From: Candidatus Latescibacterota bacterium
GTDB lineage: Bacteria > Latescibacterota > UBA2968 > GCA-2709665
NCBI GenBank assembly: GCA_963662665.2
Contig: CAXXJS010000038.1
Location: 1-23,578, forward strand
Length of the DNA: 23,578 nucleotides
Direction: 5' to 3'
The notes beneath the pieces were generated by a model. The model ran no database searches and had not been told where the DNA came from. It saw only the letters and a program-made list of their open reading frames with translations. The translations under genes and the position numbers were made by a program. This document shows, piece after piece, positions 16,604-22,725 of the stretch (positions are counted from its first letter, which is position 1; every line of letters begins with the position of its first letter).

Positions 16604-18109
16604 ATGCCATCCGATCAGAACATCCTGCTGCTCTCAGACGGCCCCGGCGGAACCATCGGTGCCGATCTCGACATTCTGTATCCCGGCAAGGTCACACGCC
16701 TGGACATTACGAGCGAATCCTGCGATCCAGGCGTTCTCGACCGGTATGAATTCCTGATCACCGTGGTGAACGACGGCCGAAACCTGAGGATGCTGGACTA
16801 CAACGCCGTTACTGCATTCGCCGAATCCGGAGGGCAGGTTGTCTCCTGCCTCTTCGAATACGCGCGCAACCGCGGCCTCAATTTCAGCAAGACCCACGTG
16901 CACGACCGCATCCGTCCCGAGATGCGAATCGAGATCGAAAACGACGTGACCCGGGGCTATTCCGTCGGCGACACCGTGTGGTGGTACGGAACCGTCACGA
17001 GCGCTCCCGATCAAAGCTATGCCAACCAGATGTTCCAACGTCAGATCCTGGACCTGGAGACTTCCGACGACGTCGCCGTTCTGGGCATATCCAATCTGAA
17101 CAGCGGCGCCGTTTTGCTGGAAGAAAGCGTTGGCGATGGCCGGATTGTGGCCATGGACCTGGTATCGCCGGTGCGTCCGTGGTACAATTCCTGGGGGAGC
17201 ACGAACAAATATCTTTTCCTGGGCAACGTCGTCAACAACGCCGTCCGTTACGGCAAGCACTATCCGGAACGCCTTTCCTACGATGGATTTGTCGATCTGA
17301 TGTTCGACACCGTGGAAGGGTATCCGGAACTCCACCTGGAGGATGAAGGACGTTCCAGTGACGGCAGACCGGTCTATTCCCTGAACGTCGGCGAAGAATC
17401 CAACCCCACAATGTACTTCGGCGCCGCCATACATGGCTGGGAATGGGAGAACGCGTACGGCCTCCTGCGCCTTGCGGAAATCCTGTGCCAGAGTCCGAAC
17501 GTGGAAGGATTGGAAACCCGCAAACTGCATTTCAAGATGCTGCCGGTGCAGAACCCCGGGGGGTTCGACCGCTTCACCCGCCAGAATTCCCGGGGCGTTG
17601 ACTTGAACCGCAACTTTGACTGCCACTGGGGTGACTTCCACTACACGCAGGACGTGCGGATGCCATGGGACTACAATTACATGGGTACGGAACCCGCCTC
17701 CGAACGCGAGACGCGGATCATCCAGCGCATCATCGACCGATGCCGGCCGCTCTGCGTGATCGATTTCCATACGGCCGACTACATTATGATGCTGTCCCAT
17801 AAGGGCGACGGGGAACTGCTTTCAGCCATTCACACCGATATCCGGGACCGCCTGAAGAACCGTTACCTGACTCAGAAGCCATACGCCGGCGCGTATCAGC
17901 AGGTCAACATGGATCGCATCACCAATTTCCGTCCACCCGAACCCTATTGCATTTCCTATGCGGCCGAACGCGGCGTCCCTGCTGCCTTCCTCATCGAAAT
18001 GTCGGGCAATCGCGACGACGTACACGCCCTCGTCATGAACACGGACACGGTTGTCGAAGTCTGCCTTGCAGCCGTGAAACAATGTCTGTTCAAAGGAGAC
18101 CCACCGTGA
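16604..18109 (+). CDS. M14 zinc carboxypeptidase-like protein with an extra ~215-aa N-terminal domain
   Basis: HGWE (HxxE), NPGG, RQNSRGVDLNRNF, DFH, FLIE; no signal peptide. Confidence 0.88.
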   Translation: MPSDQNILLLSDGPGGTIGADLDILYPGKVTRLDITSESCDPGVLDRYEFLITVVNDGRNLRMLDYNAVTAFAESGGQVVSCLFEYARNRGLNFSKTHVHDRIRPEMRIEIENDVTRGYSVGDTVWWYGTVTSAPDQSYANQMFQRQILDLETSDDVAVLGISNLNSGAVLLEESVGDGRIVAMDLVSPVRPWYNSWGSTNKYLFLGNVVNNAVRYGKHYPERLSYDGFVDLMFDTVEGYPELHLEDEGRSSDGRPVYSLNVGEESNPTMYFGAAIHGWEWENAYGLLRLAEILCQSPNVEGLETRKLHFKMLPVQNPGGFDRFTRQNSRGVDLNRNFDCHWGDFHYTQDVRMPWDYNYMGTEPASERETRIIQRIIDRCRPLCVIDFHTADYIMMLSHKGDGELLSAIHTDIRDRLKNRYLTQKPYAGAYQQVNMDRITNFRPPEPYCISYAAERGVPAAFLIEMSGNRDDVHALVMNTDTVVEVCLAAVKQCLFKGDPP

Positions 18110-19110
18110 TAATCACCGATATCGACCTCTTCGAAGTGGAAATCCCGCCGATTCCGCCCATTGCCAGATACCATCCCAAAATCTATTCAATCACACTGTG
18201 TCGCGTCCATACCGACGGCGGCATCGAGGGAGTCGGCGAATGCCAGGGCGAGCCCGCCCGATTCGCGGAAAAAGCCGCAGCGCTCACCGGGCAGGATCCC
18301 CTTTCCCTGGATCCCTTCGAACAGCCCGATCCCTTCACATGCGCGCTCCTGGACGTCGCCGGACAGGCCTACGGCATCCCCGTCTGGCGCTTTTTTGGGG
18401 AGAAGGTCCGCGACCGCATCCCCGTCTCCTACTGGTCCTGCGCCATGCAGCCCGAAGAGACCGCCGCCGAAGCCGAGATTGGCGCGAAACTGGGTTTCAC
18501 CAACCACAAACTCAAGGCGCGGCCCTGGAACATCGTGGAAACCATCGGGCTCATCAAGGAGGCCGCGGGGCCCGAATACACCGTTGGCGTAGATCCGAAC
18601 ACCGCGTTTCAGCGCCCGAGCGTTGCGGCGCGTCTTGCGGGTGAACTGGAACCGTTCGGAACGGTCGCCAACTTCGAGGATCCCGTGCGCAAAAACAACC
18701 TGGACTGGTATCGCCTCCTGCGTGAAAAAACACATATACCAATCGCGTTGCACCTGGGCGCTCCGGAAGCTGTGCTGAACGCGCTGAAGGCCGAATGCAT
18801 CGACTACGTCAACCTGGGGGGACCGGCTCAGCAGGTGAAGAAATCCGCCGCCCTCGCGGAAGCCGACGACGTCCCCTGCTGGGTGCAGATGGGCGGCCTT
18901 TGCCTGGGCGTCCTCGCCGCGTATTCCGTGCATGTCCAGGCAACCATACCCAATGCCACGCTGCCATGCGACGAACTGCCGTTCACCAGAGTGGCCGACG
19001 TTGTAAACGGCGCACTTGTCGTTGAGGACGGGCACTTCATTCTGCCCGAATCGCCCGGGCTCGGCGTGAAGCTGGATCTGGCCACGGTGGAAAAGTACCG
19101 CACCGGCTGA
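18106..19110 (+). CDS. Enolase superfamily (mandelate racemase/muconate lactonizing enzyme-like) protein
   Basis: GTG 18106 with AAAGGAG RBS, overlapping the M14 stop (GTGA); TDGGIEGVGE, ALLDVAG, KLK, DPN, EDP, PGLGV. Confidence 0.9.
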   Translation: MIITDIDLFEVEIPPIPPIARYHPKIYSITLCRVHTDGGIEGVGECQGEPARFAEKAAALTGQDPLSLDPFEQPDPFTCALLDVAGQAYGIPVWRFFGEKVRDRIPVSYWSCAMQPEETAAEAEIGAKLGFTNHKLKARPWNIVETIGLIKEAAGPEYTVGVDPNTAFQRPSVAARLAGELEPFGTVANFEDPVRKNNLDWYRLLREKTHIPIALHLGAPEAVLNALKAECIDYVNLGGPAQQVKKSAALAEADDVPCWVQMGGLCLGVLAAYSVHVQATIPNATLPCDELPFTRVADVVNGALVVEDGHFILPESPGLGVKLDLATVEKYRTG

Positions 19111-19136
19111 ACTTCAGCCGCATTCGGAGGAAAACC

Positions 19137-19475
19137 ATGCTCCAACTCGCACAAACCGTCCTGGCGCTGTACGGTCTCCTGCTGATCGCCGGCGGCATTA
19201 TGGGCAAGCTCAAATCGGACAGTTCGGTTTCGCTCGCCGCGGGCGGCATCAGCGGTCTGGTCGCGCTCTACGCGTTTTGGACCGGACGGACCGATCCCGC
19301 AACGGGGCTGCTCATTGGCCTGATGCTATCCCTGCTGCTTACCGGTATTTCACTGAGTCGCTTCATCAGGACCCGAAAGCTGATGCCGGCGGGCGTGTTG
19401 CTCATAGCCAGCATCGTCACGGCGGCCCTCATGTCGTATTCACGAAATCAACTCGGCATGACGGGTTCCGTCTGA
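19137..19475 (+). CDS. TMEM14 (UPF0136) family membrane protein
   Basis: YGLLLIAGGIMG..KS.S..SLAAG..SG and RFIRTRKLMPAG signatures; GGAGG RBS. Confidence 0.85.
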   Translation: MLQLAQTVLALYGLLLIAGGIMGKLKSDSSVSLAAGGISGLVALYAFWTGRTDPATGLLIGLMLSLLLTGISLSRFIRTRKLMPAGVLLIASIVTAALMSYSRNQLGMTGSV

Positions 19476-19493
19476 ACCGGGAGGACCACACCC

Positions 19494-20696
19494 ATGAAGA
19501 TCACCGACGTCCGGGTGCGGGAAGTCTCGGTTCCACGGATCTACACCACCTATGCAGCGGACCCGCAGGGGCTCCAGCCCGGTGAAGATCTCAGCCGGTC
19601 CAGATACCAGATCCTCGAGTTCTTCACGGACGGGAACCACGTCGGGCTGGGCGAAGTCCCGGACATCGCCGACCGGATGAATCCGCTCCAGGCCGGCGAT
19701 TTGCGCAATCTCCTGCTGCGGGTATTGAGAGACGGCGACGTCGCCGATCGAAACCATCTGTGCGCCCGTGTCGCGGCGGAACTGCCGGCTGACGTTCATC
19801 CCGAACTCAGGGGTCTCACCCGGTTCGGCGTGGAGATCGCTCTGCTCGACCTCGCCGGAAAGCAATACGGCGCCCCCGTTTTCGAACTCCTGGGCGGGCG
19901 CCGTCACGAACGCGTTGACGTCTGTTGGGTGGCCTATATGCGGCGGGGCGTCTCACTGCAGGAAGAGCTCGACGCGCTTGAAGAAGAAATCATAACAATG
20001 GTCTCCCGTGGACTCCGGGCTTTCAAGCTGAAAGTCGGAGAGGACCTTTCACGCGATCTGGACCGTATCGCGCGTCTTCGCAAGGTAGCGGGTCCCGACG
20101 TCTACCTCAAAGTCGACGCCAGCGGCGCGTGGGAGGAGGACGAGGCCGTGGAAAAAATCCGGGACATGGCCGCCGCCGGCATCGATGCCTGCGAGACGCC
20201 GGTAGTCGCCGTGAACCGCGCTGTCGCCAACGACAATCCCGAATGGATCAACGAAAATGCAGAGGAAGCGGCCTGCTCGCTGGCCCGCGTCCGGAAACAG
20301 ACCCCCGTTCAGATCATCGAACACGTGGCCGATATGGACGATGGTTTCTCAACGGCGCTCATACGCCACCGGGCCGTGGACGTCATTAACGTCATCCCCT
20401 CCCAGGCCGGCGGTATCCTGCGCAGCCAACGTCTGATCCATACCGCACAGGCGGCAGGGGTCCCCGCGCTGCTGGGAAGCACGGTGGAGATGGGTCCCGG
20501 CACCGCCGCGTTTGTCCACCTTGCCGTTGCTTCCGATAACGTAACGGTTCCATCGGACCTGGTCGGGCCGGCCCTCCTGGTGGATGATATCTGCACGACG
20601 CCGTTCAGGTACCGGAGCGGCACGCTCCAACCCTTCGATGGACCCGGCCTCGGCGTTGAATTGGACGAACAGAAAATGAGGCGATGGGCAGTCTGA
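19494..20696 (+). CDS. Enolase superfamily protein resembling the galactarate dehydratase II (GalrD-II) subgroup
   Basis: GLGE, IALLDLAGK, FKLKVG, VDAS, ETP, IIEHV, LGSTVE, SDLVGP, GPGLGVELD. Confidence 0.9.
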   Translation: MKITDVRVREVSVPRIYTTYAADPQGLQPGEDLSRSRYQILEFFTDGNHVGLGEVPDIADRMNPLQAGDLRNLLLRVLRDGDVADRNHLCARVAAELPADVHPELRGLTRFGVEIALLDLAGKQYGAPVFELLGGRRHERVDVCWVAYMRRGVSLQEELDALEEEIITMVSRGLRAFKLKVGEDLSRDLDRIARLRKVAGPDVYLKVDASGAWEEDEAVEKIRDMAAAGIDACETPVVAVNRAVANDNPEWINENAEEAACSLARVRKQTPVQIIEHVADMDDGFSTALIRHRAVDVINVIPSQAGGILRSQRLIHTAQAAGVPALLGSTVEMGPGTAAFVHLAVASDNVTVPSDLVGPALLVDDICTTPFRYRSGTLQPFDGPGLGVELDEQKMRRWAV

Positions 20697-20711
20697 GATC
20701 GCGGGCAATGT

Positions 20712-21152
20712 CTATGACGATTCAGATTCCCGGACGTCGAGACCCAACCCCTCGTCTTCACAGAGCTTTCTCAATTTGCGTATCGCACCGCCCACCCGCC
20801 GGCCCCCGCGCGTAATACCGAACAGGTGCTGGCTGACCACGCGGCGGGAGATCCCCATAATCTCGGCGATTTCCCGTTGCGTCTTTCCGTGGCGGAAATA
20901 CAGAAACGTCGCCTCTTTCTGTTTCTCCGTGAGGCAATGCGGTACCGCCTCCAGAATCCGGAGAGCCAGGTCCGCAATCCGGTCCTCCCACACGTACCGC
21001 AGGCGTCGATCATCGCCGGACTCGAACCAGAGGCCGTCTTCGTCGGAAATCTTCTCCAGCTCGCATTGATTCAGCCGTACTTCCCAGAAATCGGAGTTGT
21101 ACATGTAATCGATCATCTCCTCCGTGTCAGGATCAACCACGCCTTCAGGCAC
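20712..21152 (-). CDS. Sigma-70 region 4 HTH-only protein
   Basis: LTEKQKEATFLYFRHGKTQREIAEIMGISRRVVSQHL...AIRKLRK; no region 2 recognisable; start uncertain (GTG 21152, ATG 21116 or ATG 21104; GGAGG at 21119-21123). Confidence 0.85.
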   Translation of the reverse strand: MPEGVVDPDTEEMIDYMYNSDFWEVRLNQCELEKISDEDGLWFESGDDRRLRYVWEDRIADLALRILEAVPHCLTEKQKEATFLYFRHGKTQREIAEIMGISRRVVSQHLFGITRGGRRVGGAIRKLRKLCEDEGLGLDVRESESS

Positions 21153-21153
21153 G

Positions 21154-21185
21154 AAAAAAACCGCGGGAACTAAGCCTACCCGCGG
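21154..21185 (-). terminator. Intrinsic terminator directly upstream of the sigma-region-4 gene
   Basis: Minus strand CCGCGGG-N11-CCCGCGG followed by TTTTTTT. Confidence 0.8.
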
Positions 21186-21228
21186 CTCCGGAGGGACAAT
21201 CGAGTTGCAAGAAACGGCTGTGATTCCG

Positions 21229-21282
21229 TCAAATACGCCCGGGAGGCGGATAGGTTACGAGGAAGTTTCCGGTCAGCCTCAT
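21229..21282 (-). CDS. Putative 17-aa leader peptide MRLTGNFLVTYPPPGRI
   Basis: GGGAGG SD 6 nt before ATG 21282; TGA at 21229-21231; lies between a predicted promoter and the terminator. Confidence 0.55.
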   Translation of the reverse strand: MRLTGNFLVTYPPPGRI

Positions 21283-21358
21283 TTTTCGCCTCCCTTCTGC
21301 AAAAACGTAAAAAGGGTGAACACGTCAAGCGCCATCAGGCACAATCACGGGCTCCTGC

Positions 21359-21388
21359 AATATACACAATTGCGGATGCACTATTCAA
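21359..21388 (-). promoter_or_regulatory. Putative sigma70-type promoter for the leader/sigma-region-4 transcript
   Basis: Minus strand TTGAAT-N18-TATATT just after the rarA stop. Confidence 0.45.
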
Positions 21389-21390
21389 CG

Positions 21391-22725
21391 CTAAACGTCG
21401 TCCGGCGCGCTTTCCATTCCTGACTTTCGCCTTCTCAACGCGTCCCACCAGTCCATCAGTTCCCGGACCCGCTGTTCGTATCCCCGATCGGAGGGACGAT
21501 AATAGGCCCGGCCCTCCAGATTTTCCGGCAAATGGCTCTGCGCCACGTACCCGTCCGGATCGTCGTGCGCGTATTGGTATCCCCGCCCGTATCCCAATTC
21601 CTGCATCAGGCTCGTCGGTGCATTTCTGAGGTGTACCGGAACGGGCAGATTCGGCTGTTCGATGACGTCCTTCCGGGCTTCGCCGTAGGCCCTGTAAACC
21701 GAATTGCTCTTGGCTGCGGTGGCCAGATACACGGCCGCGTGTGCAATGGCCAGATCGCCTTCGGGGCTTCCCAGAAAATCGTAAGCGTCTTTGGCGGCCA
21801 GCGCAATGGATAGCGCCCGGGGATCCGCGTTTCCGATATCCTCCGACGCAAATCGGACCATCCGACGCAGGATATAGTGCGGGTGTTCGCCCGATTCCAT
21901 CATTCGGGCCAGCCAGTATAGCGACGCATGCGGATCGCTGTCCCTCAGGCTCTTGTGCAGCGCAGAAATCAGATTATAGTGTTCCTCGCCGCTCTTGTCG
22001 TACAGAAACGCCTTGCTTCCCATAGCCGCCTTGACAGACTCCGCCGTCAACCGGCTACCCGTCCCCGCGGATGCCGCGGCCATTTCCAGGACATTCAGCG
22101 CACGGCGGGCGTCTCCCTCCGCCGCAGCGGCTATCGTCTCAAGCGCATCCGGGTGGGCGGTAACGTCCGGCAGCCCGCGCCCGTCGCCGGCAAGCGCGGC
22201 GTCCAGGATTTCGCAAATTTCCGGAACGTCCAGCAGATTCAACACAAACACCTGTGTCCGTGAAAGCAGCGCCGCGTTCACCTCAAAGGAAGGATTCTCG
22301 GTCGTTGCCCCTATCAGATTGATGGTGCCGTCTTCGACGTGCGGCAGGAACGCGTCCTGTTGCGCCCGGTTGAAACGGTGAATCTCATCGATGAACAGGG
22401 TGGTCCGCCTCCCCAACCGGCGTTCCCCTTTTGCGCGCGCGACAATCTCCCTGACCTCCTTCACTCCGGAAGTGACCGCGCTGAACGCTACAAACCGGCT
22501 CTTCGTCAACCCGGCCACGAGCCGCGCCAGCGTGGTCTTGCCCGAACCCGGCGGGCCCCAGAAGATCATCGAAGGCGCCCGGTCGCCTTCGATCAACTTG
22601 CGAAACGGAGCGTCCGGCGCCGTGAGGTGATCCTGCCCATGCACCTCATCCAGGCAGCGCGGCCTCATCCGGTCCGCAAGCGGCGCCTCCGGTTCCAGCG
22701 CGGCGAACAGGTTATCCCCAACCAT
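21391..22725 (-). CDS. rarA: Replication-associated recombination protein A (RarA/MgsA, AAA+ ATPase)
   Basis: PLADRMRP, WGPPGSGKTT, FIDEIHRFN, GATTENPSF, GDARRALN, YNLISALHKS, ASEDIGNADP, GYGRGYQYAHD. Confidence 0.97.
   Translation of the reverse strand: MVGDNLFAALEPEAPLADRMRPRCLDEVHGQDHLTAPDAPFRKLIEGDRAPSMIFWGPPGSGKTTLARLVAGLTKSRFVAFSAVTSGVKEVREIVARAKGERRLGRRTTLFIDEIHRFNRAQQDAFLPHVEDGTINLIGATTENPSFEVNAALLSRTQVFVLNLLDVPEICEILDAALAGDGRGLPDVTAHPDALETIAAAAEGDARRALNVLEMAAASAGTGSRLTAESVKAAMGSKAFLYDKSGEEHYNLISALHKSLRDSDPHASLYWLARMMESGEHPHYILRRMVRFASEDIGNADPRALSIALAAKDAYDFLGSPEGDLAIAHAAVYLATAAKSNSVYRAYGEARKDVIEQPNLPVPVHLRNAPTSLMQELGYGRGYQYAHDDPDGYVAQSHLPENLEGRAYYRPSDRGYEQRVRELMDWWDALRRRKSGMESAPDDV

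Follow-up and report, generated by a model that had tools for sequence, protein, structure and literature searches.

A leader with a short open reading frame before a sigma-region-4-only gene in Latescibacterota: a probable ribosome-dependent transcription attenuator

What decides whether the gene at 20712-21104, on the minus strand of contig CAXXJS010000038.1 from a Candidatus Latescibacterota genome, is transcribed and translated? The gene encodes a 130-aa protein with region 4 of a sigma-70 factor, and in the stretch of 23,578 nt that was analysed (the window) it is preceded by a short upstream open reading frame (uORF), whose peptide ends YPPPGRI, and by a GC-rich hairpin with a run of seven T residues. 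A reading made from the sequence alone (the sequence-only reading) had proposed that the position of the ribosome on this uORF selects between a terminator and an antiterminator, possibly in response to elongation factor P (EF-P), prolyl-tRNA or translation stress. We conclude that the leader is probably a transcription attenuator of the ribosome-dependent (leader-peptide) type, on which translational control is superimposed as a second layer, and that the triple-proline motif is probably not the signal that it senses. The promoter match, Shine-Dalgarno sequence (SD), 17-codon uORF and GC hairpin with T7 were all found where that reading had placed them. The features on which the argument turns are the following.

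21388-21359, minus strand: putative promoter, a sigma-70-like match TTGAAT-N18-TATATT agreeing with the consensus at 9 of 12 positions
21300-21328, minus strand: putative second promoter position, TTGACG-N17-TTTTTG, weak here and read from the sequence
21287-21294, minus strand: segment A, the SD of the uORF (SD1, GGGAGGCG); its pairing partner is CGCCUCCC at 21248-21241
21229-21282, minus strand: uORF MRLTGNFLVTYPPPGRI, 17 codons plus TGA (ATG at 21282, TGA at 21231-21229)
21249-21241, minus strand: the three proline codons of the uORF, CCG CCT CCC
21238-21254, minus strand: segment B, predicted 5' strand of the antiterminator, made of CCUAUCCGC (21254-21246) and CUCCCGGG (21245-21238) and covering uORF codons 10-15
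21186-21194, minus strand: C-box, C-CUCCGGAG (CUCCGGAG at 21193-21186), whose partner is either segment B or the SD of the main gene (SD2)
21154-21185, minus strand: intrinsic terminator, CCGCGGG (21185-21179), an 11-nt loop, CCCGCGG (21167-21161) and T7 (21160-21154)
21183-21175, minus strand: GCGGGUAGG, common to the 5' arm and loop of the terminator and to the antiterminator
21117-21123, minus strand: SD2, GGAGGAG, 12 nt from the main ATG and showing little or no variation in a MAFFT alignment of 32 leaders (alignment A2)
20712-21104, minus strand: main gene, 130-aa protein beginning MYNSDFW, its start placed by homologues

The regulator gene and the conservation of its leader

The protein matches the Pfam families Sigma70_r4 (31.8 bits, cut-off 24.1) and Sigma70_r4_2 (29.6 bits, cut-off 25.7). 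No Pfam match to region 2 was found in its 130 residues, that is, region 4 stands alone, and TIGR02937 remained under its threshold (36 versus 42.9). The longest open reading frame (ORF) opens at GTG 21152, which had been taken as the start of the gene; the alignment of homologues, however, begins at residue 10-16 of this longer frame, from MYNSDFW, and for this reason we place the start at ATG 21104. The hairpin does not, as had been thought, abut the gene: the T-run and the ATG are 49 nt apart. Predicted proteins of the family in public collections are mostly 122-144 aa long. The family itself (~124-130 aa) is uncharacterised, carries generic names in public records and has a conserved N-terminal part, NPDFWE... 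A structure model of moderate quality (mean predicted local distance difference test score, pLDDT, 64.9) was compared with known folds using Foldseek; the best matches are sigma region 4 domains, with weak E-values, none of them at or below 0.001.

The relatives sampled comprised 61 related genomes, of which 51 hold a homologue of the regulator, and a first set of 30 loci. A wider scan with one genome per species gave 163 stretches encoding the protein, and the best 80 of these (L031-L110) were used; counts over 80 loci refer to this best 80 of 163. Their titles are mostly Candidatus Latescibacterota, some are metagenome-assembled genomes labelled Gemmatimonadota, and the most distant are labelled Poribacteria. 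Removal of duplicates reduced the 110 loci to 84 distinct leaders.

In all 30 of the first loci an SD is followed at 3-11 nt by an ATG and a short ORF, and an element of the CGCCUCC type, the C-box with the terminator arm, and a T-run are present as well. The same set of SD, uORF, C-rich element and terminator lies before the orthologous gene in 63 of the 84 distinct leaders, with the T-run 35-75 nt ahead of the main ATG; the Poribacteria-labelled loci are without a T-run. SD and ATG are present in every one of the 63 leaders with a T-run, and their uORFs range from 10 to 40 codons. The expectation that homologous loci would keep an SD, a short uORF and a terminator upstream was thus borne out.

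The leader is single-copy and specific to the regulator gene. A covariance model built from 32 leaders (R1) was run on 151 sampled genomes of the phylum and gave a strong match in 52, one per genome and at the coordinates of the regulator gene; no match was obtained in the genera that lack the gene (g2, 0/2; g3, 0/2; g7, 0/1). A scan of 20600-21800 against Rfam returned four matches with E up to 10, scoring 14.6-19.6 bits against gathering thresholds of 35-80; all four lie outside 21154-21300, and no family was found at the leader. Searching the 61 genomes for the 14-mer C-box with one mismatch gave counts equal to those of a reversed-pattern control and was uninformative. The additional exact 14-mer matches in genomes G016, G001 and G007 are inside coding sequence and were rejected as chance.

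In the Poribacteria-labelled loci (L096-L110), the region ~150 nt ahead of the main start holds a different leader, with a strong SD and, as noted, no T-run; a uORF of ~27 codons runs over a conserved GGUGCCUCUG...AUGGCAUAGG hairpin, and a second hairpin, GCCUCA...UGAGGAG, putatively sequesters the SD of the main gene. This leader resembles a counterpart that would act at the level of translation. Elsewhere, in genus g6 and in G042, a second and more distant copy of the regulator (L111-L116) is preceded by a long leader of another kind, in which a CCGCUAAUAACGG hairpin motif is repeated and a T-run is present; the sequence of that leader is unrelated to the one studied here.

Competing helices and the predicted effect of the ribosome

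The named helices were tested in alignment A2 against 500 shuffles and against slid registers. The helix between segments B and C joins CCUAUCCGC to GCGGGUAGG and, across a CC bulge, CUCCCGGG to CUCCGGAG. Its 17 pairs are formed in 88.2% of the alignment cells, compared with 84.8 +/- 0.6% in the shuffles, a value that none of the 500 reached, and with 35-53% in the slid registers. Six of the pairs vary on both sides, and there are 20 cells with a double change where the shuffles give 7.3 +/- 2.1 (again 0/500). Pair 73-189 of the alignment, for example, is UA in 18 sequences, GC in 11 and UG in 2, and pair 74-188 is AU in 20, GU in 10 and GC in 1. In a separate comparison of 21 representatives, duplexes between the 3' part of the uORF and the box and terminator arm had a mean energy of -28.0 kcal/mol when cognate and -23.8 kcal/mol when non-cognate, a difference that was not matched in 20,000 permutations. 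In distant lineages the registers are shifted or the sequences are others, such as CCUGCG with CGCAGG or CGCGGG, and the principle is retained. In alignment A4, which covers the family with 35-codon uORFs, B and C are nearly invariant, so no covariation signal could be obtained.

Antiterminator and terminator exclude one another, GCGGGUAGG being common to both. The sequence-only reading was right in proposing an antiterminator that overlaps the 5' arm of the terminator. The register that it gave is only approximate: the covariation supports 21254-21238 with 21193-21175, and on alignment evidence it is B:C, not the pairing first proposed, that is the best-supported candidate for the antiterminator.

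Three further helices complete the scheme. The pairing of SD1 with CGCCUCCC (A:B), which the sequence-only reading had also put forward, is present in the minimum-free-energy (MFE) fold of the window leader; it is formed in 85.5% of cells and chosen unaided by the RNAalifold consensus, and it could serve as an anti-antiterminator that at the same time sequesters SD1. The terminator helix is paired in 80-93% of cells. In the third helix the C-box pairs with SD2 (CCUCC at 21194-21190 with GGAGG at 21123-21119), in 98.1% of cells, and RNAalifold likewise picks it unaided. It contains one compensated pair, 176-256, which is CG in 27 sequences and UA in 3, and in those 3 the partner in segment B is also A.

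Translation of the uORF is plausible on sequence evidence. SD1 (GGGAGGCG) is strong, and the 3' end of the 16S rRNA reads ...CACCTCCTT, with CCUCC. Within one genus the length of the uORF differs by 6 nt in frame (20 versus 18 codons), and in genus g6 the last eight codons show synonymous differences only (pS 0.176, pN 0). The ratio of non-synonymous to synonymous differences per site (pN/pS) ranges overall from 0.43 to 1.31, with 0.68 for the window's own genus. By eye, many uORF peptides have threonine pairs or triplets near their middle, such as TT or TTT in several lineages. A distant family of leaders (L072-L090, L094, L070 and L047) has uORFs of 34-40 codons with a recurring peptide, ...PK(T/A)FV(S/T)D.G.P..SPEC(C/F)W..., and their stop codon lies within a covarying hairpin, CCCUGA...UCAGGG.

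The effect of the ribosome was modelled by constrained MFE folding with fixed ribosome footprints, using the window leader and 23 lineage representatives. The free RNA of the window leader is predicted to form A:B together with the terminator (-49.9). Masking from SD1 to 15 nt beyond the ATG yields the antiterminator (-31.6), and the terminator is lost. With a footprint placing the second proline codon in the P site, or with a footprint at the last codon, the terminator forms. Among the representatives, the terminator is predicted in 14 of 23 for the free RNA and in 5 of 23 when the SD and start are masked, the remaining 18 then adopting the antiterminator. With a footprint on segment B, five codons before the stop, 22 of 23 form the terminator, and with one at the last codon 19 of 23 do. 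The modelled folds suggest a common rule: termination would follow when a ribosome covers the final third of the uORF, and the antiterminator would form when that third is free of ribosomes. The SD1 helix would serve as an extra lock in some lineages.

The mechanism that we propose involves four segments. Segment A is the SD of the uORF; segment B is the final, C-rich third of the uORF, including the proline codons; segment C consists of the CUCCGGAG box and the 5' arm and loop of the terminator; and segment D consists of the 3' arm and U-run. Formation of A:B and C:D together would bring about termination. Formation of B:C (~17 bp) would prevent the terminator and would also keep the C-box off the SD of the main gene. 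A ribosome that has translated into B, or has paused there or at the stop codon, would mask B, the terminator would form and the gene would be off. If instead A:B is open, through occupation of the SD and start or in some other way, and B has not yet been reached by a ribosome when RNA polymerase makes C and D, B:C would form, and the gene would be both transcribed and translatable. Induction would thus be expected when ribosomes that start on the uORF, or that move through its early codons, fall behind RNA polymerase, which would amount to translation stress of some kind.

One piece of transcript evidence bears on the terminator. A metatranscriptome contig from a relative ~90% alike (one contig from one study) extends from rarA, the upstream neighbour, across the uORF as far as 21181, in the 5' arm of the terminator. 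Of three RNA runs compared with the locus, two yielded no contig and the third yielded this one, and stretches without cover were given no weight. A DNA contig runs on past the position at which this RNA contig stops. We take the end at 21181 as a weak hint of termination there.

Several observations weigh against this interpretation. The free RNA is already predicted to be in the antiterminator form in 9 of the 23 representatives and masking of the SD leaves the terminator in place in 5, from which it follows that the role of A:B is not uniform; static MFE folds, moreover, leave out the kinetics of co-transcriptional folding. The A:B and terminator helices show zero covariation in alignment A2, being nearly invariant, and the sequences compared are related by descent and not independent, so that significance estimated from shuffles is overstated. 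No run of regulatory codons upstream of B was found in the uORFs of the 63 leaders. Outside its last codons the uORF has a pN/pS near 1, reaching 1.31 in the family with 35-codon uORFs, where conservation may lie at the RNA level. The gap between SD2 and the ATG is 12-14 nt in all lineages, which is long for an SD. Finally, the 241-nt leader region is not unusually stable in comparison with shuffles (z -0.85; 41 of 200 as stable), and the case against chance consequently rests on conservation across loci. The terminator hairpin alone is calculated at -18.1 kcal/mol (z -2.2), with 7 of 200 shuffles equally stable; a simple terminator scan found none (0), since its loop limit of 8 nt misses a hairpin with an 11-nt loop. 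These points notwithstanding, a uORF-coupled attenuator belonging to the sigma-region-4-only gene remains our preferred interpretation, its elements being co-conserved with the gene and its antiterminator carrying compensatory changes.

The proline codons and other explanations

The strongest competitor is the proposal that limitation of EF-P or of prolyl-tRNA stalls the ribosome at PPPG and that the stall itself switches the leader, as in the Salmonella leaders mgtP and mgtL. Passages in PMC5021804, PMC3641672 and PMC5299641 provide these natural precedents, and the genome has an efp gene (248 bits). The triple proline is present in the window; 13 of the 15 leaders of its genus (L001-L015) have it, all but L004 and L014, and it recurs in the distant lineages L017, L065, L071 and L086. 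In addition, the frame in which the element xCU CCx is read as proline has been retained in most lineages, where it gives (P/S)-P despite very different uORF lengths (17-40 codons).

The wider set of leaders tells against a sensing role. Only 16 of the 63 distinct leaders have PPP, in the form ...PPP(E/G)xx (17 with L086, in which the PPP is placed further from the end of the uORF); 19 have PP, 18 have (S/P)SPE, in uORFs of 34-40 codons, and 10 have none of these. PPP(G) is not, then, a conserved property of homologous leaders. The ten without a motif include a uORF with an early stop (L014), uORFs in which the element is in another frame (L019-L022, L062 and L066), and others. In these same leaders, where the frame is shifted or stopped early, the CGCCUCC-type nucleotides are retained, and the wobble bases of the first two proline codons (CCG CCU) are invariant, as would be demanded by pairing with SD1 and with the terminator arm. 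In three of the leaders, L019-L021, we observed that the SD-proximal ATG is followed at once by TGA, giving a start-stop; a second ATG 4 nt further on opens a 23-codon ORF in another frame, which reads the C-rich element as RFAS.

The folding calculations point the same way. A footprint on the proline codons gives the terminator, the outcome of translation to the end of the uORF, and selects no different fold, whence a stall at PPP could not switch the leader. A polyproline sensor, and with it the idea that EF-P is the sensed signal, is in our judgement unlikely. The PPP and PP codons appear to be mainly a one-frame reading of an RNA element constrained by pairing; at most they would slow the ribosome while it covers B and so lengthen the masking of the antiterminator strand.

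Regulation of the locus may also involve the DNA further upstream. The region contains three sigma-70-like sites, where shuffles have 0.7 +/- 1.0, and the spacer of the TTGAAT-N18-TATATT match encloses a conserved motif, (A)GTGCATCC-N6-7-TGTGTA (21382-21363). GTGCATCC is found upstream of the gene in 75 of the 80 loci, including those labelled Poribacteria, some of which have two copies. The full motif lies ~90-150 nt upstream of SD1 (L031-L110) and is independent of rarA. In other genera a clean TTGACA-N17-TAnnnT occupies the position equivalent to 21300-21328. Within its own genome the full GTGCATCC motif has three sites and is not a genome-wide repeat; the 34 occurrences of the 9-mer are close to the number expected by chance. 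The two other GTGCATCC-N-GTGTA sites of the genome, one intergenic and one unclear, were treated as probable chance. We infer that GTGCATCC-TGTGTA belongs to a promoter or operator; one possibility is an operator to which the region-4 protein itself might bind.

Such a motif suggests dedicated regulation of the locus, and this is one of the grounds for an explanation in which a trans-acting factor (a protein, possibly the regulator, or a small molecule) sets the switch and the uORF is incidental. That explanation would also account for the conservation of A, B and C as RNA and for a pN/pS near 1 over most of the uORF. Against it, a strong SD, an ATG and an ORF running through B are present in 58 of the 63 leaders, with a second frame providing them in 3 more. 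Between A, B and C both sequence and length are variable, with no conserved, aptamer-like core; the leader matches nothing in Rfam; and CsrA was not found in a genome that is 92% complete, so that its absence is unproven. We consider a switch set in this way very unlikely.

The SD, uORF and terminator could alternatively constitute an independent small gene or small RNA, in which case a separate promoter beyond the T-run would drive the regulator. Such a unit would yield a stable, terminated transcript of ~140 nt that ends in a strong terminator, and passages in PMC6614838 and PMC7298713 describe attenuator-derived RNAs and leader peptides of Sinorhizobium that can act in trans. The space for a separate promoter is, however, confined to the 49 nt between T-run and ATG, which are occupied by a hairpin and SD2, and the close spacing of T-run and gene is kept in all 63 leaders. 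A conserved antiterminator overlapping the terminator would serve no purpose at a plain gene end, and the C-box pairs with SD2 of the gene that follows, one of the pairs being compensated. An independent small gene is, on this evidence, highly improbable.

That the hairpin is merely the terminator of rarA/mgsA is a negligible prospect: it does lie 230 nt downstream of the rarA stop codon on the same strand, and the relative's RNA contig covers both rarA and the leader, but rarA is upstream in only 25 of the 80 loci, the regulator gene keeps its leader and terminator at other loci as well, and in L006 the upstream DNA has been replaced by unrelated sequence and the leader is intact, so that synteny assigns the hairpin to the regulator gene.

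The remaining features of the locus are listed here.

22725-21391, minus strand: end of rarA/mgsA, the upstream neighbour (MgsA_C, 223 bits)
21213-21230, minus strand: small hairpin GACGG...CCGUU over the stop codon of the uORF in the MFE fold; by eye, relatives have similar hairpins at or after the stop
21138-21153, minus strand: second small hairpin, CGUGCC-UGAA-GGCGUG, directly after the T-run in the MFE fold; relatives are similar by eye
17947-20696, plus strand: two neighbouring ORFs that converge on the regulator gene, the first at 17947-19110 and the second, at 19494-20696, carrying the enolase-superfamily domains MR_MLE_C and MR_MLE_N

Relation to known leaders

The classical leader-peptide attenuators are those of trp, his, thr, pheL and pyrL in enterobacteria. 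Like them, the leader described here has a short ORF, four competing segments and an intrinsic terminator, its fold would be chosen by the position of the ribosome, and a ribosome at the end of the leader ORF would favour termination. It differs from them in having no cognate run of regulatory codons and in that segment 1 is the SD of the leader ORF itself. Its target, furthermore, is a transcription regulator and not a biosynthetic operon, and the same box also sequesters the main SD. The pyrL and tna leaders are among those treated in PMC5021804.

With the Salmonella leaders mgtP (of mgtCBR) and mgtL (of mgtA) it shares a proline-containing short uORF, a long leader and alternative stem-loops. 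According to passages in PMC5021804, PMC3641672 and PMC5299641, mgtP has three consecutive proline codons and responds to EF-P, and the stall at proline promotes downstream transcription in Salmonella, whereas here a ribosome on the proline codons is predicted to favour the terminator. The proline codons are, moreover, not family-wide here, and the sequences are unrelated.

A further parallel is offered by the erm leaders, B. subtilis yxjB/tlrB and Listeria hflXr, in which, as parts of PMC6851288, PMC6310831 and PMC8274638 describe, early arrest on the leader ORF exposes an antiterminator or anti-sequestor and induces the gene. Unlike those antibiotic-responsive leaders, the present one precedes no resistance gene and has no known arrest motif or inducer. 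The B. subtilis rplJL leader resembles it in its logic of anti-antiterminator, antiterminator and terminator and in having a leader peptide that affects expression; there, as portions of PMC4538822 report, binding of L10(L12)4 sets the switch and the leader peptide has been proposed to counteract Rho, whereas here there is no known protein partner. The matches listed by a full-text literature search combining Latescibacter with leader peptide concern secondary-metabolite biosynthesis. The leader represents an undescribed, phylum-wide RNA family of dual transcriptional and translational design that is absent from Rfam.

As a tentative extension, the leader could be a dedicated translation-stress sensor that, whenever ribosomes do not arrive at the end of the uORF in time with RNA polymerase, both antiterminates and unmasks the SD of the regulator, which would in turn bind GTGCATCC-N-TGTGTA at its own promoter; PPP or PP, where present, would be a brake, tunable by EF-P, that determines the duration of antiterminator masking, and the abundant terminated RNA or its peptide might act in trans. 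If this were true, a stress-sensing leader would govern a regulator conserved across Latescibacterota and Poribacteria-labelled genomes.

Most known leader-peptide attenuators come from cultured Proteobacteria and Firmicutes, where they control amino-acid operons, resistance genes and a small number of transporter genes. Here a leader conserved across an uncultured phylum would control a transcription regulator, and its design is unusual in that the SD of the leader ORF would itself be the partner in an anti-antiterminator and that a single box would be used twice, in the antiterminator and to sequester the main SD. The locus also warns against overreading polyproline codons in a leader, since they can arise as a by-product where an RNA element resembles an anti-SD. 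For the Latescibacterota themselves, it offers a testable entry into gene regulation.

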